Below, piece after piece: positions 12,816 to 45,925 of a stretch of 64,000 nucleotides of DNA; position 1 is the stretch's first letter; each line of letters starts with the position of its first letter. Source of the stretch: Narcine bancroftii (lineage: Eukaryota). Where the stretch lies: contig NC_091473.1 in the NCBI RefSeq assembly GCF_036971445.1, positions 185,194,001 through 185,258,000 of the forward strand, given 5' to 3'. The position numbers and the translations under genes are program-made. The notes under the pieces were generated by a model, which worked only from the letters and a program-made list of their open reading frames with translations, was not told the origin of the DNA and did not search any database.

Positions 12816-12885
12816 ATGGGCTATCCAGCCATTTACCATATAACCAGGATTTACTACCCGCTACTTGTCGCGGTTGGAATCCCTG
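12816..12885 (+). CDS. GPR139-like class A GPCR copy 1, coding exon 1 (MGYPAIYHITRIYYPLLVAVGIP + 1 nt)
   Basis: ATG at 12816, 70 nt, phase-1 donor G|GTAAG. The YYP..GIP TM1 motif and intron position match the GPR139 gene structure (YYS..GLP|ANIL). Confidence 0.88.
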
Positions 12886-13270
12886 GTAAGATACTGGGGT
12901 TGGATCCGTGTGGTTCGGTTTAAGTTACTCTTGCCCTTGTCCACATCTCGCCAGGACACCCAGCACAGATGCTGCCTCGTGGGTTCTGACTTTATTCCAT
13001 GATGGTTGAGTTTCTTCTGCAGGTTTACGCATTGTCCAATTTCTCTTAATTTTAATTGTATTTTATTCGGTTTGGGTCCTGTTCATATTTACAATCACAG
13101 TGGTAAAATTGGTGTACATATTAACATCGTTCCCACATTTACTTTGATGCAGTTTCCATCGCATTACTGACAATTTATTTTTATATCCAGGTGCCCTTTG
13201 ATAACGATCAAATATTTAACAACAGCAAGACGATATTTACTGCCTAATTTCCGCCCATCAGAGCGATATA

Positions 13271-13480
13271 GGGCGGATCGGTCCGCGCACTGCTTTTACA
13301 GAGCCAGCGATAGCGGCCGGGGGGTTCGAATCCCGCGCTGTCTGTATGTTCTCCCCGTGTCTGGGCGGGTTTTTCCCGGGGCTCAGGTTTCTTTCGACTG
13401 TTCAGAACGCATCGGGGTTGTAAGTTAATTGCCCGTAAATTCAGCGGCACGGCCTGCAGGACAAAATGGCCACTTGCAGC
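13271..13480 (+). mobile_element. V-SINE (HE1-like) in the intron of copy 1
   Basis: B box GGTTCGAATCC and V-domain TGTATGTTCTCCCCGTGTCTG...GGTTTC. Homologues at about 19803-19990, 24516-24725 and 30326-30535. Confidence 0.8.
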
Positions 13481-13861
13481 AATTATGTTTATTTGCTTTT
13501 AAAATTACATAAAACTCTCATGTATCCGTATTAGCACCTCTATAATTCGAAGATGAACCTGAGATCTCACCTCCAATTCCGTTCTTCGACCTTTATGCAG
13601 CTTCGTGTATCTTTGTTTCCATTTGGTAAATTCGTTGTTCCCAAAGGAACAGACGCACTGAGAACACGTTTTGTCTCACCATTCAGCCTCCCCTCAGCAC
13701 TTTCGGTGAGTGTGGGGTGTGTTGCAGTCCATTACTCTGATCCTCAACCATCCTCGTCCGACGGGATGTCGGAGAAATGACAACGTTTTCGGGCACACAA
13801 ATAAAGTGAAAAGGATCCGGGTTCGCACGGTTGAACTAACTAGTTTTTTGTGCATTTACAG

Positions 13862-14739
13862 TTAATTTAATTGCGATTGTGATTCTGTGGCGGAGGAATT
13901 GTGGTCTGTCACGGTGCATAACTCACTACCTCATCGGAATGGCGATCGCTGATTTAATGTGTGTGGTCACCGGGGTTTTGCTGGAGCAATCTAATAACAT
14001 ATACATTTTTGCTCCGTATTTGCTCTTCACTCCAATCTGCACGCTGACCCTTGTCCTGAGGTTTGTAGCAATGGACTGTTCTGTCTGGTTGACGGTGGCT
14101 TTCACGTTCGATCGCTACGTCGCAATTTGTGGTGTGAGATTTCGGGAACGGTATTGCACCAAGCGAACGGCCACGGTTGTGATGGTAATTGTGACAATAT
14201 GGGGTTGTATGAGGTACGTTCCCTACGCCTTCGCAATAAAACCTTTGGTCCTCATTGACAACTTGCCGTGGCGCTGCGTTACCAAAGCTGAATATTCGAC
14301 CTCATCCTTCTGGAGAATATATACAGTCTTCATCAGCGTCACAACACCTTTAGTGCCAATTGGCCTCATTGTATTGTTCAACGCTTTAACCGTCCGTCAT
14401 GTCGTCGCGGCAAATGAAATACGTCGGGGTATCCGGAAAAGCATTGTGAAGGAGACGGATTTGGAGGCGGTAAACCGCAGAAAGTCAATGAATTTGTTGT
14501 ACTTTCTCTCCGCCAATTTTATTTTGTTGTGGATCCCCTATGTCGTGTTTCAGTCAAAATGGCAAACTCAAAATTATTTTTACACTGACAGATATCTAAA
14601 TAACCCGACGTATATTCTGCAGCAATGTGCATTCATGTTGCAATTTCTCAGTACCTGCACCAACACCTGTATCTACACCTTGTCCCAAAGGAGATTCAGG
14701 GAGGAGCTGAAGATGGTGGTGAAACATCTCTTTACATGA
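13862..14739 (+). CDS. GPR139-like class A GPCR copy 1, coding exon 2 (intact; spliced product 315 aa)
   Basis: Acceptor TTTACAG|TT. The open frame has MAIAD (TM2), DRY, WIP (TM6), NTCIY (NPxxY equivalent), helix 8 RRFREEL and the TM3/ECL2 cysteines. 70+878 nt = 316 codons including the stop. Confidence 0.93.
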
Positions 14740-15217
14740 AGGGGATGGCGTTGTATGTCAATCCTCCATTTAGTGCTCAAATAAATCTTACAATTGATCT
14801 GTAGATTTTGAAGGAATATAAGCCGATGTTGTCATGTGGGACACATACATAAATATTTCAAGCTCATTTAGTCACGTTATTGGACTTAAGTTTGCAACCG
14901 AAGTTCCGTTGGTGTGTATGTATGTATTTTTTATCTCTCTATCTTTTTCGAACCCTCCCTTCCTCCCTTCCTTCTTCAGTCGAACGTGATTGACCATGGG
15001 TACTACGCCATTGGTAGACACTGGAGTGTTGAACAAGGACGACTGTGACNNNNNNNNNNNNNNNNNNNNNNNNNNNNNNNNNNNNNNNNNNNNNNNNNNN
15101 NNNNNNNNNNNNNNNNNNNNNNNNNNNNNNNNNNNNNNNNNNNNNNNNNNNNNNNNNNNNNNNNNNNNNNNNNNNNNNNNNNNNNNNNNNNNNNNNNNNN
15201 NNNNNNNNNNNNNNNNN

Positions 15218-15878
15218 ATCAAACAGCAACCACAAAGAAGCCATATCACACAGGGGTAAAGATTAATAATTATTTAATTAATAAGAAATTCAACTTGAAA
15301 CTTTTATTCAAAATCCCCTCTTTTATATCAATGCCCACTGGGTACTATGCAAATTTTTATAACGGTGTAAAAACTAATAAATATCCCAGCCTAAATATAA
15401 CATATGGTATTAAAGTCTAGGTTATATTTCCAACCAGCCCACAGAAATACATAGACACAAAATAAACACAAAACACACAGGATTCACAAAACTTTCATCT
15501 CAACTGAAGCAAATATCATTTACTAAATTCAGTTTGTTTGGTAAACTGAAGCCGAATGTTCTTTGAGAGAGAGAGCACAACATTCGAAGTTGTCTTGTGT
15601 TGCTTGCAGAGAGAGGAATCGATGATCTGGTCCGGATCCTTCTAGCTGCCTTCGGAACGTTCATTTCCTTATGAAATGCCTCCTTCCACTCCACATCGCA
15701 CAAGTCGTGTTTTATCGTCCAAGTCCAGAAATGTTTAGATCATTTTCTGCACATGCTCAGTCCGTCACCCACACTCTCAACAGTTCATCTTCACCTTGGC
15801 TCTCTCAGGAAAACTGTCAATTTTTAACATAAAACCACACCACACATAGGCCAATACACAACTCAGAATTCTCTATCA
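15218..15878 (-). mobile_element. Probable LTR-like insertion (one end hidden in N run)
   Basis: Absent from the equivalent spacer after copy 3. The remnant at 35551-35579 ends TGTTACA (TGTAACA on the minus strand), a typical LTR terminus. Confidence 0.4.
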
Positions 15879-15892
15879 ATATACATGCATTA

Positions 15893-15896
<4 letters not shown>

Positions 15897-15932
<36 letters not shown>
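15897..15932. repeat. (TA)18 microsatellite
   Basis: Read directly from the sequence. Confidence 0.95.
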
Positions 15933-15934
<2 letters not shown>

Positions 15935-15989
15935 TGCATCAAATCATTACATTGTTGGTATTCGGATCATATGTGTGGGCAATGAGCCA

Positions 15990-16230
15990 TAACATTACAG
16001 CACAGAAACAGGCCGTTCGGCGCTTCTAGACTGTGCTGAATTATTATTCTGCCTAGTCCCACTGAACTGCACACAGTCCATAGCCCTCCATAGCCCTCCC
16101 ATACATGTACCTGTCAAAAGTCTGTCCAAATTTTAAAACGGACTCTTCATTTTCCACTACAGCTGGAAGCTAGTCCCACACTCCCACTAGACTCTGTGTG
16201 AAGAAGTTCCCCCTCATGTTTTTTCTTTCA
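15990..16230 (-). mobile_element. CR1-type LINE 3' fragment, part of each repeat unit (also about 21950-22200, 27480-27700, 35660-35900)
   Basis: ACAGCACAGAAACAGGCC...CCATAGCCCTCC...CTCTGTGTGAAGAAGTTCCCCCTCATG is the reverse complement of a CR1 ORF2 end (FFTQ.VV..W..L) plus its 3' UTR. Confidence 0.7.
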
Positions 16231-16356
16231 CCCTGTCACACGTGTCCTCTGCCCTGAATCTCATATATAGTGAAACTGGGAAAACTAAAGCGGAAAGTGA
16301 GAAACTGCTGTTAAAGAGAGTGATTTCCACAGACTAATGTCATAAATTGAGTATTT

Positions 16357-17653: not shown

Positions 17654-17671
17654 GTCATAAATGCCGTCTTT

Positions 17672-17870
17672 AACAAGCGTTCAGGCACAATCGCCTCGTC
17701 TCTCCCGTTTCGACGTGTTTGTTGCACGTACCGTGTAGAGTCCACTCCTCCACTCGCTCTACATCCATGACTTGTGACCAGGTGCGATTCAAATGCAAGC
17801 TGCAAATTTGCCGACGACGCCACGGTTGTCTGCAGGATCATAAACAGCGACGAAGAAACCAAGAAGACTA
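17672..17870 (+). mobile_element. Rex1-clade LINE RT fragment (also about 27830-28040 and 37470-37690)
   Basis: PLL.S.YTHD...KFADDATVV.RI.NS.EE motif typical of Rex1/Babar reverse transcriptase. Confidence 0.7.
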
Positions 17871-18689
17871 TGGTGAAAACATACAGAGATGCTGGAGGAA
17901 CCCAGCCGGTCTCGCAGCGACCATTTGTGTTTCTATATATATTGCGAATGTTTCCTGAGACCTTCCTCCAGCATTTATGTGTTTTGGAAAAGGCTCGATG
18001 AACCAGATGTCCCACTCATGCTTTTATTTTCTATGTGTTTGTAATTTCATGAAGGCTGGAACACATTGATAAAATATTGCATGTTCTTTGATCTTGTTTG
18101 GGATAGGGGACGGAAGGTAAGTGGAGACAAACTGCAGTCAACAAGAATAAGCAAATACCCCAAATTGGATGCGGCCCACATTTCACCAAGGAAACTCCTG
18201 ACAAAGGCCTTGGTGGGACTGAAAACAAAGTGCTCAGTATTCGGAATGAGCATCGGTTACTCCACTGTTTGGGCGGGGGACATTAGAGCTGGCGGCCAGT
18301 CAAAGGCACCTGCAGTTACGGTGCAGAGCGGGGTGGACAGCTCCCGACCGCAGAGTTTAAAATGTCCCTCGCAGCAGCTCCTCGAGGATTCGTGGATTGA
18401 ACCAGGTGTAAGTGTAGGAGCAGCGGCGAGGAAATGTCGCCGAAAGCATCTGATGAAGTCGGGAAGTCACTGAGAACTAAACCAGAGGTGGGATTTCTTA
18501 TATAATAGGTGAATAGATATATGAGAAGTTAGGGAAAGTGGACAAGGCGTGAATGCGGTGAGACTTAATGAGAAGTGACGTGAATGTGGATCAGTGACCC
18601 GAGTAAACCACAGATTGGTCAGAATTGTTACAGGGAGCTGAGTTCAAGACATGGGATTTCCCACCAACGTGGGCGAAGCGTCAGTGACA

Positions 18690-19343: not shown

Positions 19344-21432
19344 ATGGGCTATCCAGCCATTGGCCATATCGCCAGGATTTACCACCGTGTACATCTCGCG
19401 GTTGGAATCCCTTGTAAGACACTGGTGTTGTCTCGGAGGGGTTCGGTTCTAAGTTGCTTTTGTTCTTGTCCACAACTCGCCTGGACACCCCGCACAGATG
19501 CTGCCTCGCGGGCTGAGACTTTAATCCCCAATAATTCCGTTTCCTCTGCACTTTTATGCATTGTTTGATTTCTCTTAAGTGTGACTGTATTTAATCTGTT
19601 TTGGGGACCTGTTCATTTTTATAATCACATCGGTCAAATCGGTGCCCATATTAAAATCTTTCCCACATTTACTTTCATGCAGTTTCCATCGCATTACTGA
19701 CTCCTTTGTTTATATACAGGAGCTCTTTGATACGATCAATATCAATATTTTAAACGACTTGACAATCTTTACTGCCCAGTTTCCGCCCCACTGAAAGATA
19801 TTGGGCGGCCCGCGACGCGCACCGCCTTTACAATGCTAGCGATAGGGGGACGGGGGTTCGTACCCCGCGCTGTCTGGGCGGGTTTTTCACGGAGACTCCG
19901 GTTGCTTTCCACTGTTCAAACCGAACAGGGATGTAGGTTAATTGCCCATACATTGGGCGGCACGGACTGGAGGACAGAATGAGATGTTAGAGCAAGTATG
20001 TCTAAATATTTTTTTAAAAAATAAATCACTCTTGTATCCGTATAAACGCCCCAGCAATTGGAAGGAGATCCTGAGTTCCCACCTCCAATCGACATTGATG
20101 CAGGTTTGTGTATTTTTGTTTCCATTTGATAAATACCTTCTTCCCAAAGAAACAGACGCTGTCGGAGCACATTTTAGTCTCCCCATTCATACTCCCCAAG
20201 CACTTTCCGTTCCAGTCACACACCTGGTCTCGATGACTGAGGTGATCCGCCCTTCACCGACAAGGAATCCAGAGTCTCCGATCTAAACCGCTCTCAGATC
20301 GAATTCCGGTCCGCGGTTGTCATCCATCGGGGCTTTTGGGTGAAGTGGTGGGGGGTGGTAGGGGAAAAGGGAAAGAGAAAGGGTTGGAGAGGCCGGATCT
20401 GCTGCGTTCCCACTCTATGATGTCATCCATCCTCGTCCGACAGAGGGACGGAGAACTGACAACTCTTTTGGGCACAAATATCAGATGAAAATGATCCGTG
20501 TTGGCGCGGTTGAACTGACAATTATTTTCAATCTTTACAGTTAATTTAATTGCGATTGTGATTGCGATTGCAAATTGCGCAGGAATTGTGGCCTGTCACG
20601 GTGCCTCACTCGCTACCTCGTCGGAATGGCGATGGCTGATTTCATGTGTATAGTAATAGGGGTGTTGCTGGACAAGGTGAATAACGTCTAAATTTATGCT
20701 CCGTATTTGCTCTACACTCCAATCTGCACGCTGACCCTGTCCTGAGGTTTGGATCCATGGACTGTTCCGTCTTGTTGACAGTGGCGTTCACGTTCGATCG
20801 CTAAGTCGCAGTTTGTGGGGTGAGGCCGCGGGAATGTTATTGCACCGACCGAACAGCCACATTTGTGATGGTAATTGTGACATGTGGGGCTGTGTGAGGT
20901 ATATTCCCTTCGCCTTCGCCAGAAAACCTCTGGTCCCCATTGTGCACTTGCCATGGCGCTGCGAGTCCAAAGCTGAATATTCGACCTCATCCTTCTGGAG
21001 AATATACACGGTCTTCATCAGCGTCACCACATCGTTATTGTCAATCGGCCTCATTGTATTGTTTACTGCTTTAAACCGTCCCTCATCTTGTCGCGACAAA
21101 TAAAATAAGTCGGGGTCTCCGAAAAAAAAAATGGGAAGGAGAAGGATCCTGAGGCGGGAAACTGCAGAAAGTAAATGGTTTTGATGTTTTCTCTCTCTCT
21201 CCCCCCGCCAATTTTACTTTGTTTCGATCCACTATATCGTGCTTCACTCAAAATGGCAAACTCATGATTACTTTTACACGGATAGATATCGAAATAACCC
21301 GACATATATTCTGCAGCAATGTTCATACATGTTTCAATTTCTCAGTACATGTACTAACACGTGTATCTACACGTGTCCCAGAGAGGATTCAGGGTGGAGC
21401 TGAATGTTGCAGTGAAATATTTCTTTACATGA
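19344..21432 (+). pseudogene. GPR139-like GPCR copy 2 pseudogene (exons 19344-19413 and 20541-21432)
   Basis: Homologous two-exon structure with a frameshifting replacement at about 20564-20580, TAA at 20689, DRY changed to DR* (TAA 20802) and further indels. Confidence 0.93.
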
Positions 21433-24055: not shown

Positions 24056-27052
24056 ATGGGCTATACAGCCATTTACCACATCGCCAGGATTTACTACCCG
24101 GTACCTGTCACGGTTGGAATCCCTGGTAAGACACTGGTGTTGGCTCCGAGGGGTTCAGTTCTATGTTGCTCTTGTCCTTCTCCATATCTCGCCTCGACTC
24201 TCCGCACAGATGCTGCCTCTCCGATTGAGATTTTAGTCCCCGATGGTTGAATTTCTTCTGCACTTTTACGCATTGTTTAATTTCACTTTATTTTCACTGT
24301 ATTTTAATCCGTTTGAGTCCTGTTCAATTTATAATCCCATTTGTAAAATCGGTGTCCATATTAACATCGTCCCTGCATTTACTTTGATGCAGTTTCCATC
24401 GCATTACTGACAAAAAAAAATATTTTTTTAAATCAGGAGCCCTTTAATACGATGAAATATTGATCAACAACGAGACATTCTTTACTGCCCAATTTCTTCC
24501 CAACTGAGCGATGTTGGGCAGCCCGGTCCGCAAACCGCCTTTACAGCGCCAGCGATAAGGGGACGGGGGTTCGAATCCCGCAGCGGTCTGTACGTTCTGC
24601 CAGTATCTGGGCGGGTAATTCCCGGGGGCTGCGGTTTCTTCCCACTGTTCACAAGGGACCGGGGTTGTAGCTTAATTGCCCGTAACTTGGGCGGCACGGT
24701 CTGGAGGACAGAATGGGCTGTTACAGAAAGTATGTCAAAGTTTTATATATATATATAAAACTCTTTTGTATCCGTATAAACGCCTCTGCAATTCGAATGA
24801 AAACCTGAGATCTCACCTCCAAACCCGTTCTTCGACCTTTATGCACCCTCGTGTATTTTTGTTTACATTTGGTAAATTAGTTCTTCCCAAAGAAACAGAC
24901 GCTGTCGAACACATTTTGTCTAACCATTCATGCTCCCCCACAGCACTTTCCGTTCCAGGCACTGACCTGGTCTCGGTGTAATGAAAGAATTACACTGTGT
25001 TTTTACTTCTGCAGCTGCAATGCTGAGAACCTGTTTGGAATCAGCAGACATAATCTAAATTCCACCACGAGCCCAGGATGCATATTTAGTAAACACCCAC
25101 CATGGGGCCCAGGATGCAGTTGAATAGGAAGACATTATCTAATTTACATTTATGAGGCCCAGAGCAGCTTACATTTGTTGGTCGCAGACTGTTAGGAGAC
25201 CTTGAAGATAATTAAACCATTTGTTCAAAGATATGGGATTTGAAGTAAACAACTTTTGGGGTGATATGAGCCATGCTCCCACTGCTGAAGTGAGAGACTC
25301 TCCAAGAGGTGGCAACATCTCTCAGCAAGAGGAAGATAATAAACTATTTGTTCAAAGAGATAGGATCTGAGGTAAACAACTTTTGGGGTGATATGAGCCA
25401 TGGCCCCATTCTGAAGTGAGAGACTCTCCAAGAGGTGGCAACATCTATCAGCAAGAGGAAGATAATAAACCATTTGTTCAAAAAGATAAGATCTGAAGTA
25501 AACAAGTTTTGGGTAATATAAGCCCTGGTCCCACTGCTAAAGAGAGAGTCTCTGGAAGAGGTGGATACATCTCTCAGCAAGAAGAAGAACTTCAAGAGTC
25601 CAGATGATGTCCGGTCGAGGGAGGTAGAGAAGCTGGTACCTGCGCCCCAGCAACCAACTACAAATGTGCCTCGCTTCGGCAGTTGGGACCAGTCCAGGCG
25701 TTGATAAGTATAATGGGAAAGGGCTTGCATATTGTAGTGTGAATTCAGCTTTAGATTTAGTAATAATTACTTGTATAAACTGAACTGCTCTCGGTGTGTG
25801 TGTCTATTTTCGTTCGGTAGTTCGAACACTGTGCCCAATCTAAAACGAACAAAGTGAGAGGTACAAGCTTACCCAAGACACTCGGTATCTGATGTGATCG
25901 GCCTTTCACCGACCTGGAGTCCAGAGTCCCCGATCTAAACAGCTCTCAGATCGCATCCAGTCCGCTGTTGTCATCCACCTGGGGTTGGGGGAAAGGGGGA
26001 TAGTGAGAGAGACAGAGAGAGAGAGCGCGCGATCGAGAGATAGCCCGGGTCTGCTGCCTTCCCACTCTATGATCCTCAGCCACCCTCGTCCGAGAGAGGA
26101 ACGGAAAAATTACATCGTTTTCGGGCACAAATATCAAGTGAAAAGAATCCGGGTTGGCGCGGTTGAACTTAGTTTTTTGTGTCTTTACAGTAAATTTAAT
26201 TGCAATTATGATTCTGTGGCGGAGGAATTATGGTATCTCACGGTGAATCAATGGCGATGGCTGATTTAAAGTGTGTGGTCTTCGGTATGTTGCTGGAGCA
26301 GATTAATAACATTTAAATTTATTCTCCGCATTTGCTCTTCACTTCAATCTGCACTCTGACCTTTCTCCTGTGGTTTGGAGCCATGGACTGTTCTGTTTGG
26401 TTGACGGTGGCTTTCACGTTCGATCGTTACATAGCAATTTGTTGTGTTAACCTGCGGGAACGGTATTGCACCGATCGAAAAGCCACGGTTGTGATGGTAA
26501 TTGTTACAATTTAGACCTGAGTGAGGTGCGTTCCATTCGCCTTCGTAATTAAACCTTTGGTCCTCATTGACCACTTGCCATGGCGCTGCGTGGCCAAAGC
26601 TGAATATTCAACCTTATCTTTCTGGAGAATATATGCCGTCTTCCTTTGCGTCACTGCACCGTTATTGCCAATAGGCCTCATTGTATTGTTCAACGTTTTA
26701 ACCGTCCGTCATGTCATTGCGGCAAATAAAATACGTAGGAGTCTCTGGAGAAACATTGTGAAGTAGACAGATCCGGAGGAGTAAAACCGCAGAAAGTCAA
26801 TGGATTTGTTGTTTTCTCTCTCCGCCAATTTTATTTTTTTGTGGATCCCCTATGGCGTGTTTCAATCAAAATGACAAACTCAAAATTATATTTACACGGA
26901 CAGATATCTAAATAACCCGACATATATTCTGCAGAAATGTGCATTAATGTTTGAATATCTCAGTACCTTCACCGACACGTGTATCTACAACTTATCCCAG
27001 AGGAGACTCAGGAAGGAGCTGAAAATTTTGTGGAAATAGCTCTTTACATTAA
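24056..27052 (+). pseudogene. GPR139-like GPCR copy 3 pseudogene (exons 24056-24125 and 26191-27052)
   Basis: In-frame TGA at about 26244, a deletion in ICL1/TM2, and several further stops (26511, 26764, 26872). Confidence 0.93.
24977..25880. mobile_element. Solo LTR (904 bp) in the intron of copy 3
   Basis: TGT...ACA termini with a perfect 5-bp TSD CTCGG (24972-24976 and 25881-25885). Absent from paralogous introns. Contains three ~127-bp tandem repeats (about 25204-25585). Confidence 0.9.
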
Positions 27053-29872: not shown

Positions 29873-32800
29873 GTGGACTATCCAGCCATTTACCACATCG
29901 CCAGGATTTACTATCCGATAGTGATCGCCGTTGGAATCCCTGGTCAAACACTGGTATTGGCAACGAGGGTCTCGGTTCTAAGTTGCTCTTGTCCTTGACC
30001 ACATCTAGCCTGGACAACCCGCACAGATGCTGCCTTTCGGGTTGAGATATTATTCCCCGATGGTTGAATTTCTTCTGCACTTTTGTGCATTGTTTAATTT
30101 TTCTTAATTTAGACTGCATTTTAATCTGTTTGTGTCCTGTTCATTTTTACAATCCCATCCGTAAAATCGGTGTCCATATTAACATCATTCCCGCATTTAC
30201 GTTGATGCAGTTTCCATCGCATTATTGACAATTTTTAAAAATCTTCTCGGGGCCCCTCGATGCGATGAAATATTCACAACCAAGACAATCTTCACTGCCC
30301 AATTTCCGCCCAACAGAGCGATGTAGGGCGGCCCGGTCCGAGCACCGCCTTTCTGGTGCCAGCGATCAGGGGACATGGATTCGAATCCCGCGTTGCCTGT
30401 ACGTTCTCCCCGTGTCCGAGCGGGTTTTTCCTTGGGGCTCCGGTTTCTTTCAACTGTTCAAAACGGACCGGAGATGCAGGTTAATTGCCTGTAAGGTGGG
30501 CGGCACAGACTGGAGGGAAAAATGGGGTGTTACAGTAAGTATGTCTAAATTTTTAAAATAATCCACTTAATCGCCCCTGAAATTCGAAGAAGAACCTGAG
30601 TTCTCACCTCCAAACTCATTTTTCGACCTGTATGTAGTTCCGTGTATTTTTATTTCCATTTGGCGAATACGTTATTCCCAAAGAAACAAACGCTGTCAGA
30701 TCGCATTTTAGTCTAACGATTCATGCTTCCCCAACACTTTCCGTTTAAGCCACTTATCTAGTCGTGGATTCACGTGATGGAGTAGTGGCCGGTAAGGAAA
30801 AAACAGCCCTCTTCACAAAAGAAAAAAGTTAGGAAGAGACAAAAAATTCATGTAGACGTTAAAGATACTCTCGGATTGATATGTTTTTGTTGTCGACCCA
30901 CATTCAAGGGAGAGTTCGGAAAACTGAATACAAAGCTAGATTACTATCTGATCATTCACCCCTTTTATTATCAACAGAACTGGAGGACATCCCACCAAGA
31001 ACATATAGGTGGAGGTTAAACTCCATGCTAATTAAAGGACAAGAATTTAGAGAGATTATTGAATGCCAAATTAAAACATATTTTGAAATAAATACGGAAT
31101 CAGTGAAAGACAAATTTATATTATGGGACGCAATGAAAGTCTTCATTAGAGGGCAGATAATACGTTATATTACTCAGCTGCAAAAGGACTTCAATCGGGA
31201 AATAGAGCATTTGGAAAGTGAGATAGTAACTACAGAAAGGAACTAGTAAAAAGGGATGATATAACGAAAGGGAAAGAATTGGTGGGCAATACAATAAAGT
31301 ACAAAACATTACAAATGAATAAGGTGGAGAAGAAGATAATGAAAATAAAGCAAATGTATTACGAACTGGGAGAACGAAAACATAAAAAATTAGCCTGGCA
31401 ACTTTAAATTGAACTAACTAAAAGAAATGTATTGGCACCAAGGAAAAATGACAAACAAATTACATATAACCTAATAGAGATTAATGATGTTTAAGGACTT
31501 CTATGAACAATTATAACAAACTGGGAACGATGGGAAAAATTAGAAAATAGAAGAGTTTTTAGCTAAAATTGAACTGCCGAAATTGCAAGAAGAGGAACAA
31601 AACAGTCTGATAAAACCATTTGAAATAGAGGAAGTACAGAAGATATTTTAAAAATCTGCTGAACAAAAAAAAAACGCCTGGAGAGGATGGATTCACAATA
31701 GCATTCTATCAAACATTTAAAGAGTTATTAATTCTTCTTCTCCTGGAAATAATGAACCAGATAGAAGAAACACAAAACTTGCCAGATTCATGTTAGACAG
31801 CAATAATTACAGTAATACCAAAGAAGGAAAGGATCCACTAACACCAGCGTCATATAGACCAATATCTCTACTTAATTCAGATTATAAGATAACAGCGAAA
31901 TTATTACCAAACAGATTGGCACATTGTGTACCAAACAAGCTCAAACTGGATTTATGAAGAAAAGACGAACAGTGATTAATGTCTTTAAATTTATTAATCT
32001 AATTCATGCAGTTCAAGGACACAAGAAACCAACAGTGGCTGTTGCATTAGACGGAGAGAATGCCTTTGAGAGAGTAGATTGGAATTATTGATTTAAAGTA
32101 TTACAGAGGTTCAATCAACCAGAACAATATATTATTTGATTAAAGCATTATATAATGGAGGAATGGTGAAATTAACAGTTAATGGATATGTATCAAACCA
32201 ATTAAATTAAGTAGGTCAACTAGACAGGAATGTCAATTATCCCACTCACAGTTCACTTCAGCAACTGGCAGAACTGATAAGAACAGAAAATAAAAGAAGA
32301 GGGATAAAAATAAAGGAGAAGGAATATAAAATCAGTTTATTTGCAGATGACATCATAGTATAAATAATAGAACCAGAAATATTAATAAAAGAAGTACGTA
32401 AGAAATTGAACGAGTATGGAGAAATATCGGGGATAAAGATCAACGAAAATAAAAGGGAAGTGATGCCAATTCTGGATTACACAGAATTTAAAAAAAGAAT
32501 CACCATGAATTGGCAAACAAAAACAATCTGATACCGAGGTACAAGGTTAGATAATAACAAGCCACCTGTACAAATTAAATTATCAGGCACTAATAAGTAA
32601 ATTGCATAAAGACATAGAATATTGTAATGAATTACCGCTAACGTTGATAGAGTGGTTAAATTGAATTAAAATGAATCTCTTCCCAAGGATAAAATAGTTA
32701 TTTGAATCGTTACCAATTTCCTTAACACAGAAATTCTTTACTGAACTAAAGAGAATAATAAGGACATTCCTGTGGAAAGGGGGAAACCGAGGACAACATT

Positions 32801-35548
32801 TGATAAATTAACAGAGAGGTACAACTAAGATGGTTTGCAGTTACCAAACTTTAAAAATTATTATAGAGCAGCACAATTAAGGTATTTATCAGATTTATAC
32901 CAGACAAGGGAAAAACCAGACTGAAGTAATATAGAACTAGATAAAAGAGGGAGAAGGTAGCCGAAAATAATTTATAACTGGGATGAAAAGCTGGTACAAT
33001 ATAAATGCTCACTGGTATTGCATCATTTATTCAATATATGGAAGAAGATCCACTTAGAAAGGAAAAAAATAAAAACAAATTACCAATTATCAAAATTAAT
33101 ATTGATGCAAAATCCGCTAATCCATTTTACTATAGATAAACTTTCTTTTAGAGAATGCGAGAGAAATGGAATCAAAATAATATAAAATTGTTTTTTTGGG
33201 AAATAATTTATCAACATTTATACAGTTGACGTACAAATATGAAATAACTGATGGTAAAATTTTTGCATATCATCAGTTCAAAGATTATTTAAATGATTAA
33301 ATTGGGCAACAGACTCAGATTACCAGAACAAAGCAGCTTTTAATATGTGATTTCAGACACAATGAGAATTAAAAGATTTATAACGAACATGTATATTAAG
33401 CAGCAATATAAGAAAAACGATGAAATAAGCTATAAACCCAAACAAAACTGGGAAAAGGATTTCAACATAAAGATAAAAAATGAAACATGGGAGAAGTTAT
33501 ATTCTAGAACGATGAAGAATATAATAAACACAAGGTTAGGCATGATACAGTATAATTCGTTACACAGGTTATATAGCACGCCCCAAAATTTAAGAAAATG
33601 GATTCCAACATTATCAGATAGATTTCTTCGCTGTAAGGAAATGGGAAGAACAGTACATGCAATTTTGGCATGTGAGAACGTGAAAATGTTTTGGGAAGAT
33701 CTAAATCGGATATTAAATAAAATCACGAAAACTCACATACCAAAAATCCAGAGATCTTTCTTCTAAGCTTGATAAGAATTAAGGAATTAGGCCTCAACTG
33801 GAATAAAACGGAAAAAATATTTTTATGATAGCCTTTGCAGAAGCAAAAAAAAAATGTATAATGTTAAATTGGAAAAAGGAAGAGGGCCTTACAATACAGC
33901 AATGGTACAGGGAAATACTTAAATGTATTCCATTGGAAAAATTAAAATATAATTTAAAAAATAAAGTCCCATTATTTGAACATATTTGTGAACCATGCAT
34001 GGAATATAGCAGAGAGGGTTTGCCTCGGACCTCCACGCCCGAAAATGATAAGAAGACAAAACGACTTGATCCAGTGTGGAAAAGTAGATGACACATTTTT
34101 CGTGTTTATTTTTCATTGTGGGATAACATTGTTTAATGGCTTTATTGTATTGTATATGTTGATTATTTATTGGTTTTGGAGGGCGTTGGAAGGTATGGGG
34201 AGAAGGTAGAAAATCCCACTGTGTATATTTAATGTATATATTTTGCTTGATATGGTTCATAGTGGGAAACATAAAAGAAAAATCTGGGGTCAGGGGGGAA
34301 AGTGGGCGGAGGCAGAGGGAAAGACTAACGTCCTAAATCGCGTCTTTTTAATTATCATTTTATTTAAATGTTTTATAAAATTCTACTACCCTCCTTCCCT
34401 CCCCCACTGACCTATCCCACCCTCTACAACCATCCCCACACCTCGGTGCATTATTAAAGAAAAACACAATAATATCATGTTATAACCGGTTGTTGTACGG
34501 TGTGCCGACCATTTACATATTTCATCACTTATAAAACTTTTACTTAAAATGGAAACCAATACAACTACATTTTTCGTGTTTATTTTTCATTGTGGGATAA
34601 CATTGTTTAATGGCTTTATTGTATTGTATATGTTGATTATTTATTGGATTTGGAGGGAGTTGGAAGGTATGGGGCGAAGGTAGAAAATGCCACTGTGTAT
34701 ATTTAATGTATATATTTTGTTTGATATGGTTCATAGTGGGAAAAATAAAAGAAAACTATTTTAAAAAGTCACTGATCTCGTCTCGGTGACTGCGCAGATC
34801 GTCCCTTCACCGACCAGGTGTTCAGAGTCACCAATCTAAACCACTCTCCGATCACACTCCGGTCCGCTGCTTTCGTCGATCTGGGGTCGGGGGGGAAAGT
34901 GGGGGGAGGCAGAGGGAAAGAATGAGTGAGAGAGAAAGAGACCGGACCCGCTCCGTTCCCACTCTCTGATCCTCAGCCATCCTTTTCGACATAGGGTCGG
35001 AGAAATGACAACGTTTTCGGGCACAAATATAACCTGAAAAGGATACGGATTGGCGCGGTTGAACTGACTTTTTTCTGTCTTTACAATTAATTTAATTGCG
35101 ATTGTGATCAAGTGGCGGAGGAATTGTGGTCTGTCACGGTGCATAACATCTACATTTATGCTCCGAATTTGCTCTTCACTCCAATCAGCACGCTGACACT
35201 TGTCCTTCGGTTGGGAGCCACGGACTGTTCGGTTAGGCTGATAGTGGCTTTTACGTTCGATCGCGACGTCGCAATTTGTGGTGTGAGGCTGTGGGGAAGG
35301 TATTGCAACGATGGAAAGGCTATGGTTGTGAAGAAAATTGTGACAATATGGAGCTGTGTGAGGTATATTCCCTACGTCTTCGCAATAAAACCTTTGGTCC
35401 TCATTGACCACTTGCCATGGCGCTGCGTTCCTAAAGCTAAATATTAGACCTCATCCTTATGAAGAATATACACGATCTTCATCAGTGTCACCACAACTTT
35501 AGTGCCAATCGGCCTCATTGTATTCTTCAACGGTTTAACCATCCCATA
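29873..35548 (+). pseudogene. GPR139-like GPCR copy 4 pseudogene (exons 29873-29942 and 35087-~35548)
   Basis: ATG changed to GTG, donor GTAAG to GTCAA, acceptor AG to AA. TM2 deleted, DRY changed to DRD, stop at 35445, truncated after TM5. Confidence 0.92.
30764..34765 (+). mobile_element. L1-clade LINE (decayed ORF2, ORF1 region deleted) in the intron of copy 4
   Basis: Motifs YSRIDMFL, SDHSP, WDAMK, KTPGEDGF, YRPISLLNSDYK, LFADD and the C-terminal Cys-rich region. Degenerate 17-bp TSD: AAGCCACTTATCTAGTC (30747-30763) and AAGTCACTGATCTCGTC (34766-34782). Confidence 0.92.
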
Positions 35549-36026
35549 TTGCCAATACACAACACAGAACTCTGTTACAATATACATACATTGATTATAT
35601 ATATAGGCACCAAATCATTGCATTTTTGATATTCGGATCATATGTGTAGGCAAGGAATCATACCATTACAGCACAGAAACAGGCCCTTCTGCCCTTCTAG
35701 TCTGTTATGAACTATTATTCTGCCGAGACCCACTGAACTGCACCCAGCTCATAGCCTTCCATACCCACCCATGCATGTACCTGTCCAAAGTCTGCCTAAA
35801 TATTAAAACGGACCCTTCATTTTCCACCACAACTGGCAGCTCGTCCCACATTCCCACTACACTCTTTGTGAAGAAGCTCCACCTCATATTTCTCCTTTCA
35901 CCCTTTCTCCAGTGTCCTTTAGTCAGTATCCCATAGATTGTGAAGCTGGATAATCCAAACCGGAAAGTGAGAAACTGCTGTTAAAGAGCGTGAGTTCCAC
36001 AGACTAACGTCCTAAATCGCGTCTTT

Positions 36027-37448
36027 TTAATTGTCATTTTATTTAAATGCTTTATAAAATTCTAGTACCCTCCTTCCCTCCCCCACTGACCTATCCCACC
36101 CTCTACAACCATCCCCACACCTCGGTGCATTATTAAAGAAAAACACAATAATATCATGTTATGACCGGTTGTTGTACGGTGTGCCGACCATTTACATCTT
36201 TCATCACTTATAAAACTTTTACTTAAAATGGAAACCAATACATTTCCAATACAAACTCCACATTTTAACAAAAAAATTAATATTCCGAAAATTATACGTT
36301 TTCTTCTCCATATAAATACATGATTCAATTTCATTATGCCATTGTTGTATACTCAATTCAACCTCATTTTTCCAAGTAACATCTACACATTTTCTCGCCA
36401 ACGCCAGTCCAAGACGTATAAATGAAATTTGACGTTTCTCCATTCGTACATTTGCCGTAATTGTATTCATATATCGCAATCAACATACCCATGGATCAAC
36501 ATATAAATATATTTTTAAGAAACCTCGTAAATTAATTTTCCCCAAAATGTCTAAAGCTTTGTACGTTCCCACACTGATGTAAAAAATTACCTGTCTGATC
36601 AACACACCTAAAACATAAATCTGGCCCTCCAAATCGATATTTTTTCAATTTTTCAGGAGTTAATATAACTGATGCAATAAATTATAATTAACTAACTATA
36701 ACGTACATTAATGAATTTTGTAACACTATCCAGTCATCTGACCATTCGTCCACAGAGGTAGGAATAGATAGGACTTTTTCCCATTTATCCTTTNNNNNNN
36801 NNNNNNNNNNNNNNNNNNNNNNNNNNNNNNNNNNNNNNNNNNNNNNNNNNNNNNNNNNNNNNNNNNNNNNNNNNNNNNNNNNNNNNNNNNNNNNNNNNNN
36901 NNNNNNNNNNNNNNNNNNNNNNNNNNNNNNNNNNNNNNNNNNNNTTTCCTTTAATAACAGGAACATTTATGAAATAAATCCCTTTCTACCCTTATCAACA
37001 ATTAATGTCTCAAATTTCGTATGACCAGGTAATTTAAACTCAATATCGTTGGTTTCAAATACAAATCTCGTACTTAAAAAGAAGCAAGTGATGTGTTTTG
37101 TTATATTCCAAATTTCTCTCTTAGTCTATTAAACGAAAGAAAAAATATGCTTTAAAGCAATCCTCCACTAATATTATTCCTTCTGATTACCAATCATTCA
37201 AAAAAGGATTATTCAAAGAAAATGAAATGGTCTGTTTCTGATATAACGGTGCCTTAACTAAAGTTTTACCATTCGATCATATCAGTTGATTCCATTTCTA
37301 CTGTACCCCATCAAATGTTTCAAAACTGGCAGTTTATACTGTTGTAAAAACTACGGATTCAATTTACATATAGAATGATGTACAGTTATTTCTTCTATTT
37401 GATCCATCGCCACTGTCTCGCATAGTGGAAGTTGATCAATATCAAACA
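36027..37448 (-). mobile_element. L1 fragment, duplicate of 16357-17653 at the same unit position
   Basis: Colinear homology with the same flanking TSD-like sequences (36009-36026 and 37449-37466). Confidence 0.85.
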
Positions 37449-39709: not shown

Positions 39710-39779
39710 ATGGACTATCCAGCCATTTACCACATCGCAAGGATTTATTACCCGGTACTTGTCGCGGTTGGAATCCCTG
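39710..39779 (+). CDS. GPR139-like GPCR copy 5, coding exon 1 (MDYPAIYHIARIYYPVLVAVGIP + 1 nt)
   Basis: ATG at 39710, 70 nt, intact G|GTAAG donor, TATA-like TGTATAAA at 39652. Confidence 0.87.
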
Positions 39780-39804
39780 GTAAGACCCTTGTGTTGGCTA
39801 CGAT

Positions 39805-42800
39805 AAATACGGAATTTCTCAATATATATGCACCTAATGAGGAGGAACAAAATTTAAGGCAAGTAGTTTTTGATGATTGTTCATACACAAGGAAATATAT
39901 TCCTAGGAAGGGATTTTAACCTTAACTTGGATCCAATGTTGGGTAAAACTGGACAAAAGACTAGCAAAAACAATAAAGCAGCCAGATGTATGGTTAAATC
40001 AATGCAGAAAATGAAACTTATGGATATATGGAGGAGACGGCACGCAAGAGAGAAGGAACACTCATTTTATTTAAAAAGGCATAAAACATACTCTAGGATC
40101 GTTATGTTTTTGTTGTCAGCCCATATTAAAGGAAGAATTAGGAAAGCTGAATATAAAGCTAGATCATTCACCCCTGTTATTAGCAATAGAACTGGAGGAA
40201 ATCTCACCTTGAACATATAGATGGAGGTTAAACTCCATGCCACTTAAAAGGCAGGAATTTAAAGAGTTTATTGAATGACGAATTAAAACATATTTTGAAA
40301 TAAATACGGAATCAGTGAAAGAATAATTTATATTATGAGACGCAATAAAAGCCTTCGTAAGAAGGCAGATAATAAGGTACGTAACTAAGATTTTAAAAAA
40401 AGGACTACAATTGGGAAATAGAGCAGTTGAAAAGGGAGATAGTAACTACAGAAAAGAAACTGGTAAAAAGCGATGATGTCACAAAAGGGAGAGAATTGGG
40501 GACAAAAAAATGTACGAAACATTACAAATGTATAAGGTGGAGAAGAACATAATGAAAATAAACAAAAGTATTATGAACTAGGAGAAAAAAATCTCATAAA
40601 ATATTAGCTTGGCAGCTTAGAACAAGATTAAAATAAAACTCTATTGGCTTCAAGGAAAAAGGACAAACAAATTACATATAACCTAATAGACACTGATGAG
40701 AAATTTAATGAATTTTATGAATGAATATAACAAACTGAGAATGAGGGGAAAGATAATAGAGTAGAGGAGTTTTTATCAAAAATTTAACTGCCGAAATTGC
40801 AAGAAGAGAAACAAGACAAACTGAGAAAACCATTCGAAATAGAGAAAGTACAGGATATATTAAAATAGCTGCCGAACAACAAAACGCCTGGAGAGGATGG
40901 ATTCGCAATAGAATTCAATAAAACATTTAAAGAATTATTAATTCCTCCTCTCCTGGAAGTAATGAACCAGATGGAAGAAACACAAAACTTGTCAGATTCA
41001 TGTAAGACCGCAATAATTACAGTAATACCAAAGACGGGAAAGGATCCACTAACATCGGCATCATATAGACCAATATCTCTATTTAATTCAGATTATAAGA
41101 TAATTGCGAAATTTTTAGCAGACAGATTGGCCGATTGTGTAACAAAAATATTAAAAGAAGATCAAACTGTACTTATTAAGAAAAGATGAACAGCGGATAA
41201 TACCTGTAAATTTATTAATCTAATTCATGCTGTTCAAGGAAACAAGAAGCCAACAGTGGATGCAGAGAATGCCTTTGAGAGAGTAGAATGGAATTATTGA
41301 TTTAAAGTATTACAGAAGTTCAATGTACCAGAAAAAATATATTAATTGGATTAAACCATAATGGAACATTATGGAACATTGTCGAAGTTCACATTAAATG
41401 GATATGTATCAAACCAATTTAAATTAAGTAGGTCAACTAGACAGGGATATCCATTATCCCCTTCACTGTTCGCTTGAGCAATAGAACAATTGGCAGAACT
41501 GATAAGAACAGAAAATAGAAGAAAAGGGATTAAAATAAAGGAGAAAGAGTATAAAATCAGTTTATTTGCAGATCACATCATAGTATACTGAACAGAACCA
41601 GAAATATCAATAAAAGAATTACATAAGAAAGTGAACGAGTATGGAGAAATATTGTGGGACAAGATCAACGCAAATCAGAGTGAAGTGATGCCAATGAGAA
41701 ATACAGATTATACAGAATTTAAAAAAAGAATCACCATTTAAATGGCAAACACAAGCAATCCGATACCGAGGTATTAGGTTAGATCATAATGTAAGCCATC
41801 TGTACAAATTAAATTAGCAGCCAAAAATAAAGAAATTGCTGGAAGACTTAGAACATTGGAAAGAATTGCCGCTAAGGTTGATAGGGATGGTAAATTGCAT
41901 TAAAATGAATGTCGTAGCAAGGATAAAATACTTATTTCAATCATTACCATTTCCCTTAACAGAGATATTCTTTAATGAACTAAAGAGAATTATTTGGAAA
42001 TTCTTGTGGAAAGGAGGAAACGAGGATAGCATTGGATAAATTAACAGTGAGGTACAACAAAATTGGTTTGCAGTAACCAAACTTTAAAATTCATTATAGA
42101 GCAGCACAATTAAGGTATTTATGAGATTTTTACCAGGATGGACTAAGAGAGAGCTAGATAAATTGGGGGAGAATGTACCAGAACATATTCTTTATAAGTG
42201 AGATGAAAAGCTGGTACAATATATAAGCACGCCAGTACTGTATCATTTATTGAATATATGGAAGAAGATCCACTTAGAAAGGAAAAAAAAACAAACTACC
42301 AATTATCAAAATTAATATTGATGCAAAAGCAGCTAATCGCTTTTTCAATGGATAACATTTCCTTAAGAGAATTGGAGAGAAAATGAATCAAAAGAATAGA
42401 AATTTTGTTTTTGGGGAATAATTTATTAAAATTTGAACAGTTGAAGTGCAAATATGGAATAACACATGGTAACAGGTTTCCATATCATCGATTCAAAACT
42501 TATTTAAAAGATAAATTGGGCCACAGGCTCAGATTACCAGAAGAAAGTAGCTCTAAATATGTGATTTCAGGCACAATGATAATTAAAAGATTTATAAAGT
42601 GCATGTACATTAAGCTAGAATATAATGAAAATGATATAATGGATGCAGTGGATAGAGGGGAACAGGTTGATGTTGTATATTGGATTTACAGAAAGCATTT
42701 GATTAGGTGCAACACAAGAGGCTTATCAGTAAGTTACAGGAAAGTGGAGTCCGGGGAAGTATATTGGCCTGGATTGAAAATTGGTTGTCTGACAGGAGGC

Positions 42801-44717
42801 AGAGAGTCGGGATAAATGGGAGTTTTTCAGGTTGGCAGAGAGTGGTAAGTGGGGTGCCACAGGGGTCAGTGTTAGGCCCACAACTGTTCATCATTTACAT
42901 TGATGACTTGGAGGAGGGGACAAAATGTGGTGTAGCCAAGTTTGCGGATGACACCAAATTGAATGGAATAGCAAATTGTAATGAGGATGTGAAGAGTCTG
43001 CAGAGGGATATAGTTAAGCTGGATGAGTGAGCAAAGGTCTGACAGATGGAGTACACTGTTAGAAAGTGTGAGGTTATCCACTTTGGCAAGAAAAATAAAA
43101 GAGCTGAATATTATTTAAAGTGTGAAAAACTACTGCATGCTGTTGTGCAGAGGGACTTGGGAGTGCTTGTGCATGAATCGCAAAAAGTTAGGTTGCAGGT
43201 GCAGCAGGTTATTAAGAAGGCAAATGGAATGTTGTCCTTCATCGCTAGAGGAATTGAATTCAGGAGTAGGGAGGTAATGTTGCAACTGTATAAGGTACTG
43301 GTGAGACCACACCTGGAGTACTGTGTCCAGTTCTGTTCTCCATATTTGAGGAAGGATATACTGGCTTTAGAGACGGTCCAGAGGAGGTTTATTAGGTTGA
43401 TCCCTGGGATGAAGGGGTTGATTTATGATGAAAGATTAAATCATCTAATATTGTAATTGTTCGAGTTCAGAAGAATGAGAGGAGATCTCATAGAAACATA
43501 CAGGATTATGAAGGGTAAGGATAGGATAGATGTAGGAAGGTTTTTTGAGCTGGCCGGGGAAACTAAAACGAGAGGACACAGACTCAAGATTCGGGGGACT
43601 TTAGGACAGAAATGAGGAAAAATAATTTTTCCCAGAGAGTAGTTTGGAATTCTCTAACCAGGGAAGTGGTTGAGGCTGCCTCATTAAACATACTTAAAAT
43701 TCGGTTAGATAAATTTTTACATGATAGAGGAATTAGGGGATATGGGGAGAAGGCAGGTAGGTGGAGTTAGGTCATAAATTAGATCAGCCATGATCGTATT
43801 GAATGGTGGAGCAGGCTCGATGGGCCATTTTTTGGCCTACTCCTGTTCCTACTTTCTATGTTCCTATGTTCCTATACAAAAAATGAAACATGGAAAACGT
43901 TATGTTCTGGAACTATGAAACGTATAATAAACACAAGATTATGCATGAACGAGTCCAACTGGTTGCACAAGTTATAGAGCACGCCCCAAACGTTAGGGAA
44001 ATGGGATCCAACATTTTCAAATAGATGTTATCACTGAAAGAAGGAAATGGGAACAACAGTACATGCTATCTGGGCATGTGAGAAAGTGAAAATGTTTTGG
44101 GACGATCTAAATCAGATATTCAATAGAATCACACAATATAACATACCAAAAAATCCAGAGATCTTTCTTCTAAGTAATATAAGAATTAAAGAATTAGACC
44201 TCAAATTGAATAAAATGCAAAAAGATTCTATATGATAGCCTTAGCAGTAGCAAAAAAAAGTACAATGCCAACATGGAAAATGGAAGTCAGCCTGAAAGTA
44301 CAGCAATGGTACATGGAAATGAAAAAATGTATTCCATTGAATAAAAATAACATTATAATTTAAAAATTAAAGTCACATTATTTGAACAGATTTGGGAACC
44401 ATACATGGAATTTAACAGCGAGGGCTTACCTCGAACCTCACCCCCGAAAATGATAAGAAGACAAAACGACTTGATCCAGTGTGGAAAAGTAGATGACACA
44501 TTTTTCGTGTTTATTTTTCATTGTGGGATAACATTGTTTAATGGTTTTATTGTATGGAATACGTTGATTATTTATTGGTTTTGGAGGGTGTGGGAAGGGG
44601 GAAGGGAAGGTATGGGGCGAAGGTAGAAAATGCCACAGTGTATATTTAATGAGAAACGTTTGTATATATTTTGTTTGATATGGTTGACATTTTGAAAAAT
44701 AAAATAAAATACTTAAA
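39805..44717 (+). mobile_element. L1-clade LINE (decayed) in the intron of copy 5, interrupted by CR1
   Basis: LNIYAPN, RDFN, YSRI, KTPGEDGF and YRPISLFNSDYK motifs. Colinear with 30860-34280 and has the same 3' junction (..AGCCACAAATCTGGTCTCGG). Confidence 0.92.
42639..43875 (+). mobile_element. 5'-truncated CR1 (HER1-like) LINE nested in L1
   Basis: GVPQGSVLGPQLFIIYIDDL, KFADDTK and LYKVLVRPHLEYC. 3' UTR GATCAGCCATGATCGTATTGAATGGTGGAGCAGGCTCG and a TTCCTATG-repeat tail. Confidence 0.95.
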
Positions 44718-45047
44718 CAGCCACAAATCTGGTCTCGGTGACTGAGCTGATCAGTCCTTCACCGATCAGGTGTTCAGAGTCACCGATCTAAACTGCTCTC
44801 AGATCGCACTGCGATCCGCTGTTTTCATGCATCTGGGGTTTGAGGGAAATTGGGGGGGGGGGGGGAAAGCAGAGGGAAAGAATGAGTGAGAGAGAAAGTG
44901 CGCGGGTCCACTGCGTTCCCACTCTCTGATCCTCAGCCATCCTCGTCCTAAAGGGGGTCAGAGAAATTAAAATGATTTTGTGCACAAATATAAATTGAAA
45001 AGGAGCCGGGTTGGCGCGGTTTAACTGACTTTTTTGTGTCTTTACAG

Positions 45048-45925
45048 TTAATTTAATGGCGATTTTGATTCTATGGCGGAGGAATTGTGGTTTGTCACGG
45101 TGCATCACTCGCTACCTCGTCGGAATGGCGATGGCTGATTTAATGTGTGTGGTCATCGGGGTATTGCTGGAGCAGGTTAATAACATCTACATTTTTGCTC
45201 CGTATTTGCTCTTCACTCCAATCTGCACGCTGACCCTTGTCCTAAGGTTTGTAGCAATGGACTGTTCTGTCTGGTTGACGGTGGCTTTCACGTTCGATCG
45301 CTACGTCGCAATTTGTGGTGTGAGGCTGCGGGAGCGGTATTGCACCGAGCGAACGGCCACGGTTGTGATGGTAATTGTGACAATATGGGGTTGTGTGAGA
45401 TACGTTCCCTACGCCCTCGTAATAAAACCTTGGGTCGTCATTGACCACTTGCCGTGGCGCTGCGTTCCCAAAGCTGAATATTCGTCCTCAACCTTCTGGA
45501 GAATATACACGGTCTTCATCAGCGTCACTACACCTTTAGTGCCAATCGGCCTCATTGTATTGTTCAACGGTTTAACCGTCCGTCATATTGTTGCGGCAAA
45601 TGAAATACGTCGCATTCTCCGGAAAAACATTGTGAAGGAGACGGATCCGGAGGCGGGAAAACGCAGAAAGTCAATGGTTCTGTTGTTCTCTCTCTCTGCC
45701 AATTTTATTTTGTTGTGGATCCCCTATGTCGTGTTTCACTCAAAATGGCAAACTCAAAATTATTTTTACACAGACAGATATCGAAGTAACCCGACATATA
45801 TTCTGCAGCAATTTGCATACATGTTTCTATTTCTCAGTACCTGCACCAACACGTGCATCTACACTTTGTCCCAGAGGAGATTCAGGGAGGAACTGAAGAT
45901 TGCGGTGAAATATCTCTTTACGTGA
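45048..45925 (+). CDS. GPR139-like GPCR copy 5, coding exon 2 (intact; spliced product 315 aa)
   Basis: Acceptor TTTACAG|TT and an 878-nt open frame with DRY, WIP, NTCIY and RRFREEL. About 87% aa identity to copy 1 (38 differences in 286 aa, counted by eye). Confidence 0.93.

Follow-up and report, generated by a model that had tools for sequence, protein, structure and literature searches.

A cluster of five class A receptor genes in an electric ray, best explained as part of a large elasmobranch repertoire labelled GPR139

The stretch of DNA considered here (the window) comprises 64,000 nucleotides (nt) of the electric ray Narcine bancroftii, positions 185,194,001 to 185,258,000 of contig NC_091473.1 (assembly GCF_036971445.1). 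It carries five genes for G protein-coupled receptors (GPCRs) of class A, with two exons each, arranged head-to-tail on the + strand, of which the first and the last (c1 and c5) are intact and the three between them (c2–c4) are broken. The cluster and the neighboring gene DPM3 are bracketed by two large satellites, and retroelement remnants are abundant in the cluster. Judged from sequence, the best explanation is that the cluster represents a local piece of a large elasmobranch class A GPCR repertoire, derived from the GPR139/142-related (FMRFamide/MIP-receptor-like) lineage. The genes and the sequences that accompany them are as follows.

11933-12815, + strand: upstream flank of c1, copied along with every unit; it has homologues near 18575, 23000, 28736 and 38558
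12758-12815, + strand: putative compact promoter and 5' untranslated region of c1, with TATATAA about 58 nt before the ATG; homologous in c2, c4 and c5
12816-14739, + strand: c1, intact, 315 amino acids (aa); exon 1 12816-12885, 976-nt intron, exon 2 13862-14739
19344-21432, + strand: c2, pseudogene; exon 1 19344-19413, exon 2 20541-21432
24056-27051, + strand: c3, pseudogene; exon 1 24056-24125, exon 2 26191-27051
29873-35546, + strand: c4, pseudogene; exon 1 29873-29942, exon 2 35087-~35546
39710-45925, + strand: c5, intact, 315 aa; exon 1 39710-39779, exon 2 45048-45925

In all five copies, exon 1 is 70 nt long and ends in phase 1 inside the first transmembrane helix (TM1), while exon 2 is long. 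The open frames of c1 and c5 are 948 nt each; their introns are of the GT-AG type, AATAAA follows 41 nt past the stop, and a TATA-like box lies about 58 nt upstream. The c5 intron, at 5268 nt, contains remnants of long interspersed nuclear elements (LINEs). Both proteins match the Pfam domain 7tm_1 (E 2e-21), and no other Pfam domain was found in them at E<=0.01. A tblastn search of the window with seven family proteins did not find a sixth copy, and the coordinates and counts of intact and disabled genes given in a preliminary description of this DNA were right.

The lesions are of several kinds. c2 carries eight indels and, at codons 71 and 109, two clear in-frame stops; c3 has eight stops and a 17-nt deletion and has lost its TATA-like box; c4 has a GTG start, an acceptor changed from AG to AA, a 76-nt deletion and two stops, and its exon 2 is without its 3' third, the final 342 coding nt being gone. 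An apparent frameshift in DPM3 raised the idea that c2–c4 might be assembly errors; this was rejected, since each has substitution stops and c3 and c4 have large deletions too.

Did the three copies die separately? A TAA at codon 71 is common to c2 and c3, and every other lesion is private. The probability of one such shared stop by chance is 0.14–0.24, and the promoter sequences, which differ by a 25-bp indel, group c1 with c2 and c3 with c4 and c5. A common death of c2 and c3 is therefore not needed, and the three were likely disabled independently, as had been proposed, although the shared codon keeps this from being proven. The duplicated units, 5–10 kb each, include the flanks, and their non-coding sequences diverge by about 11–25%, mostly 18–22%, in a near-star pattern, which points to duplications of similar age. 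On the other hand, exon 2 groups c1 with c5, and a LINE insertion is common to the introns of c4 and c5, so these introns share descent. Together with the promoter groups, such discordance fits unequal crossing-over and exchange between copies; the evidence for a patchwork consists of these segment groupings and of 3 discordant positions among the 13 informative residues of four paralogues. Gene conversion between c1 and c5 over a tract in TM2–TM3 was considered and rejected, as the longest stretch lacking third-position differences, 35 codons, was not significant (p=0.37).

Selection on the two intact genes is purifying but relaxed: a codon model gave a ratio of nonsynonymous to synonymous rates (omega) of 0.49 for c1 versus c5, below 1 (p=0.004). 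The many amino-acid changes between paralogues that had been emphasized earlier do exist, the two products differing at 42 positions, but they fit this relaxation and adaptive change is not demonstrated. In a two-ratio model omega was 0.43 on intact and 0.68 on pseudogene branches, a marginal gain over one ratio (p=0.098). The pseudogene-branch value is still below 1 (p=0.011), and the pseudogenes were therefore functional for part of their history.

The window holds a small part of the family. With the c5 exon-2 protein as query, 1,349 of 2,271 candidate 90%-clusters were matched at E<=1e-10. The best 120 comprise 114 named proteins, five unnamed ones and the window's own c1; all 114 come from sharks and rays (16 species) and are labelled probable or putative GPR139, and the assignment to elasmobranchs covers these 114, the other 1,229 clusters lying beyond the matches listed. 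The nearest named proteins are from Narcine bancroftii itself, and copies in this genome are not few: within the best 120 alone Narcine accounts for at least 25 clusters with 37 members, spread over 12 contigs. Outside the window, P0003 is a near-twin of c5 (97%) and P0004 a relative of c1; six of the nine differences between c5 and P0003 fall in residues 254-284, from the top of TM6 to the top of TM7, a clustering noticed after the fact. PF10324, a point of likeness with the nematode srw family, is precomputed on a few family members.

Clustering at 50% identity left 95 representatives at E<=1e-30, and all 51 near-full-length ones that were placed lie inside the expanded clade. Genera change 34 times on the tree, versus 74.7 times when shuffled (minimum 67 in 500 shuffles), 30 of 39 cherries join proteins of the same genus, and clades are genus-specific. 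These patterns support birth-and-death evolution across elasmobranchs. The expansion is elasmobranch, and the family is large, its copies turning over with repeated gene death; many clustered paralogues, a lineage-specific expansion and pseudogenes, the hallmarks of a chemosensory repertoire, are all found. The preliminary description had suspected just such a family beneath the label "probable GPR139", which the cluster count, the genus-specific clades and the pocket variability described below bear out. It had also suggested that the system may be lineage-specific, which is true of the expansion but not of the origin, for the closest relative occurs in amphibians and sturgeon.

The predicted structure of the c5 exon-2 product is a seven-helix bundle with a hairpin in the second extracellular loop (ECL2) (pLDDT 87.7; Z 24-27 to class A receptors). 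It has the expected N1x50, D2x50, DRY, WxP, N7x49-Y7x53 and a disulfide between C3x25 and ECL2, and C3x25 and C45x50 are invariant in the family; the exceptions to the class A motifs are NTCIY for NPxxY and the absence of W4x50. The closest fold neighbors are peptide receptors, with no clear winner. GPR139 was not among the 49 Foldseek rows shown and was tied at rank 6 by VIA-align; as neither singled it out, the fold search was rejected as a pointer to GPR139.

Are the genes nevertheless copies of GPR139 or GPR142, as first described? Sequence similarity does place them nearby: the best solved-structure match of the family profile is GPR139, with 60.4 bits versus 47.3 for CCR5, and GPR139 is likewise the top PDB sequence match for the related groups P0228, P0230 and P0260, but not for the invertebrate-like P0263. 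Reviews group GPR139 and GPR142 themselves with the MIP, FMRFamide, proctolin and myosuppressin receptors of protostomes (PMC8514136, PMC12208981). Our trees did not include GPR139 or GPR142, and nearness to GPR139 rests on similarity. Like the window genes, GPR139 has two exons, but it exists as a single copy, and its human and zebrafish versions are 70% identical (PMC7318219), whereas the window family has multiplied. C3x25 is present in the family, while the human GPR139 sequence compared has no Cys there. Trp and Phe are bound by GPR139 residues E108, F109, H187, W241, R244 and N271 (PMC7318219; numbering confirmed by PMC12775434), of which c1 and c5 keep two: F3x33 and W6x48 remain, and R stands in place of E3x32, I of H5x43, Y of R6x51 and F/Y of N7x38. 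In addition, the match of c5 to human GPR139 reaches no more than 27.9 bits (lower than a CXCR2 chimera), the c5 model is 23% identical to it in structural alignment (the highest among the 50 structural matches shown), and a gpr139 orthologue distinct from this family is present in the little skate (PMC9605692, supplement). By these comparisons, the window genes are not GPR139 orthologues but members of a distinct chordate subfamily. None of the 16 distant matches inspected by eye resembled GPR139.

The closest relative of the expanded family appears to be a single-copy gene of amphibians and sturgeon (the P0228 group). The careful tree, for which 50 of 78 rows were kept and 28 near-redundant ones dropped, joins the two with support of 100/98; an approximately unbiased (AU) test, however, did not reject a tree that places the family with the P0230 group (p=0.08), which makes the placement borderline. 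The P0228 group forms one cluster per species in 20 amphibians, plus sturgeon. Its search gave 25 matches, 21 from amphibians or sturgeon and four from elasmobranchs; no teleost or amniote was among them, a provisional result because the search requires shared 5-residue words. It shares with the expanded family a short N-terminus and the TM3 motif WxTVAFTFDR, but it has not multiplied, its members being 66-74% identical with an almost invariant pocket, and it is uncharacterised. The P0230 group, by contrast, is a species-tree-like single gene of fishes, amphibians, turtles and squamates, present in sharks too, that keeps R6x51 and D7x36; among 120 listed matches there was no mammal or bird name, again provisionally on account of the 5-residue words. 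The chordate clade that holds the family and the P0230 group has support of 100/99. Two P0230-group models are named as TMEM183A isoforms, which suggests that this gene adjoins TMEM183A. P0252, P0259, P0260 and P0268 are further GPR139-related groups of the same clade, and no fewer than three distinct subfamilies go under the label "probable GPR139".

The intron had also been taken as a mark of GPR139. It does interrupt TM1 in phase 1, splitting the residue aligned to GPR139 residue 43, and the human GPR139 intron presumably lies in the same helix and phase. Mispredicted N-termini, however, break at an identical point in this family and the P0230 group, so the TM1 intron is a feature of the clade and not diagnostic of GPR139.

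Which parts of the receptor have changed? Evolutionary rates were compared between 28 ligand-pocket positions (a class A list, with generic numbering mapped from conserved motifs) and 156 other TM sites, in 121 paralogues, 20 amphibian orthologues and 75 P0230-group orthologues. The pocket/other ratio was 1.64 in the paralogues (p=0.002), versus 0.27 in the amphibian and 0.73 in the P0230-group orthologues, and the shift between paralogues and orthologues was significant (p<=0.0001). In amphibians the pocket is nearly invariant, with F3x33, W6x48, N7x39 and a basic residue at 6x51 kept. The paralogues vary at 2x61, 3x28-3x33, 6x51 and 7x39, no longer have N7x39 or a basic residue at 6x51, and in most cases show acids at 3x37, 5x39 and 5x42 and R/K at 3x32, a combination that would suit zwitterionic ligands. 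The structural motifs are nearly invariant across the 121 paralogues, and while the extracellular half is variable, the intracellular side is conserved, the first and second intracellular loops and helix 8 evolving more slowly than average (0.41, 0.78 and 0.66). These comparisons support ligand diversification among the paralogues, and the simplest functional reading would be many ligands but one transduction route.

It could be argued that the proliferation was largely non-adaptive, with unequal crossing-over in repeat-rich regions producing redundant copies that decay, while weak selection keeps some. A cluster placed between satellites and rich in retroelement remnants, with three of five copies dead, would be expected in that case, and neither the marginal gain of the two-ratio model nor the lack of demonstrated positive selection speaks for more. 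However, c1/c5 omega is below 1, the structural motifs have hardly changed while the pocket has, and at least 51 subfamilies with less than 50% identity still exist, and neutral decay would not have kept them. We therefore regard this account as improbable.

The pocket also bears on an internal role, in which the paralogues would be gut or endocrine nutrient sensors, or gonad or sperm receptors, derived from a GPR142-like amino-acid sensor. The invariant pocket of the amphibian gene is what a fixed endogenous ligand would lead one to expect, and GPR139, the best solved match, binds Trp and Phe (PMC7318219). But dozens of fast-turning copies are seldom required when a receptor's ligand is endogenous, and the elasmobranch paralogues have lost two of the residues on which that expectation rests, the basic 6x51 and N7x39. 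Such a role is unlikely.

Why, then, would sharks and rays maintain so many copies? The ancestral receptor would have been single-copy with one fixed ligand, as in today's amphibians, and the elasmobranch copies may have been freed to diversify, each reading a different small water-borne ligand and all signaling through one shared G protein. The most likely ligands would be external amino-acid derivatives or short peptides, and the most likely cells olfactory neurons of the microvillous type, taste buds, or solitary chemosensory cells in gill and skin. If olfactory, they would be Go/TRPC2-positive microvillous neurons, which constitute the detectable population in the catshark (PMC10116579). 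As the role of the family, external chemosensation is in our judgement a serious candidate that falls just short of being probable.

Several observations weigh against it. Evidence of expression was found for no tissue, nor was any evidence on ligands; a spliced exon 1-2 junction occurs in none of the five unnamed short-contig matches, and the true exon 1 is missing from 67 of the 106 database models that could be anchored (18 of 20 in Narcine). Pocket sites of the paralogues are no more variable than the other helix sites of the extracellular half (1.07 vs 0.92, p=0.51), and the signal is thus one of lost pocket constraint, diversifying selection not being proven. A codon model of the two intact coding sequences found no positive selection on c1/c5; their omega is alike in the extracellular (0.51) and intracellular (0.46) halves, and they differ at 3 of 28 pocket sites (6x55, 7x39 and 7x42) versus 17 of 156 other TM sites. 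In the catshark, robust expression in the nose has already been obtained with V2R probes (PMC10116579), and even the OR genes have most of their expression in tissues other than the nose (PMC11979771). Finally, immune receptor families would be expected to show the same evolutionary pattern.

The last point deserves attention, since the paralogues could serve immune or barrier sensing, on granulocytes, mast-like or epithelial cells that detect microbial or damage peptides, as in the FPR or MRGPR clusters. Annotation commonly uses spleen and blood sequencing, yet most models are without exon 1; no expression evidence was found for such a role, and the descent is from the GPR139/FMRFamide-receptor lineage, not from the chemokine or FPR group. 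On the other hand, birth-and-death turnover, a variable pocket and a peptide-receptor fold all suit it, OR genes of the catshark have their highest expression in spleen and other organs (PMC11979771), and the reported absence of MAS1-related receptors from cartilaginous fishes (PMC8455134) leaves room for a substitute. Immune sensing is rather unlikely, though less so than either of the two accounts above.

External chemosensation remains the preferred role, and the gene models themselves do not discriminate between the readings. Only 39 of the 106 anchored models have the true exon 1 (13 more could not be anchored): c1's database model starts in TM2, a c5-like model takes a LINE end as exon 1, and the P0003 and P0005 models have unrelated or retroelement sequence in place of the 70 nt. 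This hints at low or tissue-restricted transcription. It also means that clones made from most models would be receptors without half of TM1.

How does the family compare with known chemoreceptors? OR, TAAR, V1R/ORA, V2R, T1R and T2R genes are likewise clustered, with birth-and-death evolution, many pseudogenes and a variable pocket, but they are of other ancestry, and c1 and c5 have only 7tm_1 in Pfam. The coding regions of OR, TAAR and V1R genes are mostly intronless. Membership of OR, TAAR, V1R, V2R, T1R or T2R was rejected, as the nearest relatives are GPR139-labelled and FMRFamide-receptor-like proteins. A closer parallel is the nematode srw family, weakly related to FMRFamide/myosuppressin receptors and with fast turnover (PMC2576165). 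This too is an expansion out of the FMRFamide/myosuppressin receptor group, but an independent one in another phylum, and the sensing of environmental peptides is itself speculative in that source.

Cartilaginous fishes are credited with the smallest vertebrate chemoreceptor repertoire, on average 43.8 olfactory and 4.1 taste genes (PMC10869828), and with a paucity of GPCRs in general (the whale shark paper, PMC8455134). These counts are taken from known families only. With dozens of diversified, overlooked members per genome, the small-repertoire puzzle becomes directly testable with existing RNA-seq. Only a shade less likely than the chemosensory role as such is a bolder reading: beyond the six known families of GPCR chemoreceptors, sharks and rays may possess another one, recruited out of the GPR139/FMRFamide-receptor lineage and equal to or larger in size than all the olfactory genes known from them (about 44). 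Sparse expression in nose, taste or gill cells would then be expected, the huge olfactory organs that manage with so few known receptors would be easier to explain, and the single-copy amphibian and sturgeon gene would be a bony-vertebrate relic of the family. To count as a new family of vertebrate chemoreceptors, it would need demonstrated sensory expression; at present it is an expanded class A receptor repertoire. Even if immune or internal, it is large, and its conserved single-copy Xenopus orthologue is available for deorphanisation.

No description of the family or its expansion was found in the literature searched, most subscription papers being outside its scope. The family is absent from the passages covered of a 2025 GPR139 review (PMC12208981), a review of chemoreceptors (PMC12294341), the whale shark paper (PMC8455134), a receptor census across vertebrates (PMC10869828) and PMC13113109, and supplement searches gave no match in 12 of 24 files of PMC8455134 and 7 of 10 files of PMC5278576. 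The excerpted catshark atlas (PMC11979771) never mentions it and has no GPCR in its top-50 olfactory list. The sequences are thus known from databases under a generic name, while no account seems to exist of the family, of its sister gene in amphibians or of its dynamics.

The remaining features of the window are mostly repeats:

359-11924: degenerate 14-bp satellite, 836 copies, left of the gene cluster
25204-25588: 126-bp tandem repeat, three copies, in the c3 intron; none in the other copies
30861-34281, + strand: LINE-like insertion in the c4 intron, 82% identical to its c5 counterpart
40084-42635 and 43878-44709: c5 counterpart of that insertion, in the c5 intron
42636-43877, + strand: second retroelement remnant, nested inside the c5 insertion; absent from c4
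54309-63990: degenerate satellite of 33/64-bp units, about 300 copies, right of the cluster and DPM3 (33-bp satellite to 63990)

The insertion common to c4 and c5 reads as L1-type, and its c5 copy has an RVT_1 match at 40869-41186 (E 7e-6, under the curated Pfam cut-off). The nested remnant, with RVT_1 at 42707-43027 (E 1.6e-9), reads as CR1-like. In and after c4, LINE 3' fragments at 34093-34755 and 36001-36242 have been duplicated locally and recently (97-98% identical). At 47568-49692 a pair of 218-nt direct repeats (85%) surrounds a - strand open reading frame of 186 aa (48789-49346) that has no Pfam match; it may be gag-like, and the whole is probably a decayed retroelement with long terminal repeats. 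An Rfam scan of 11900-54300 gave no matches, and the five N runs are short and all outside coding exons. DPM3, at 50511-50817 (+ strand), has an apparent 1-nt frameshift near codon 34, within a short C run; as glycosylation normally requires DPM3, an assembly error is more likely than loss of the gene. Its putative non-coding first exon likely ends near 49971.

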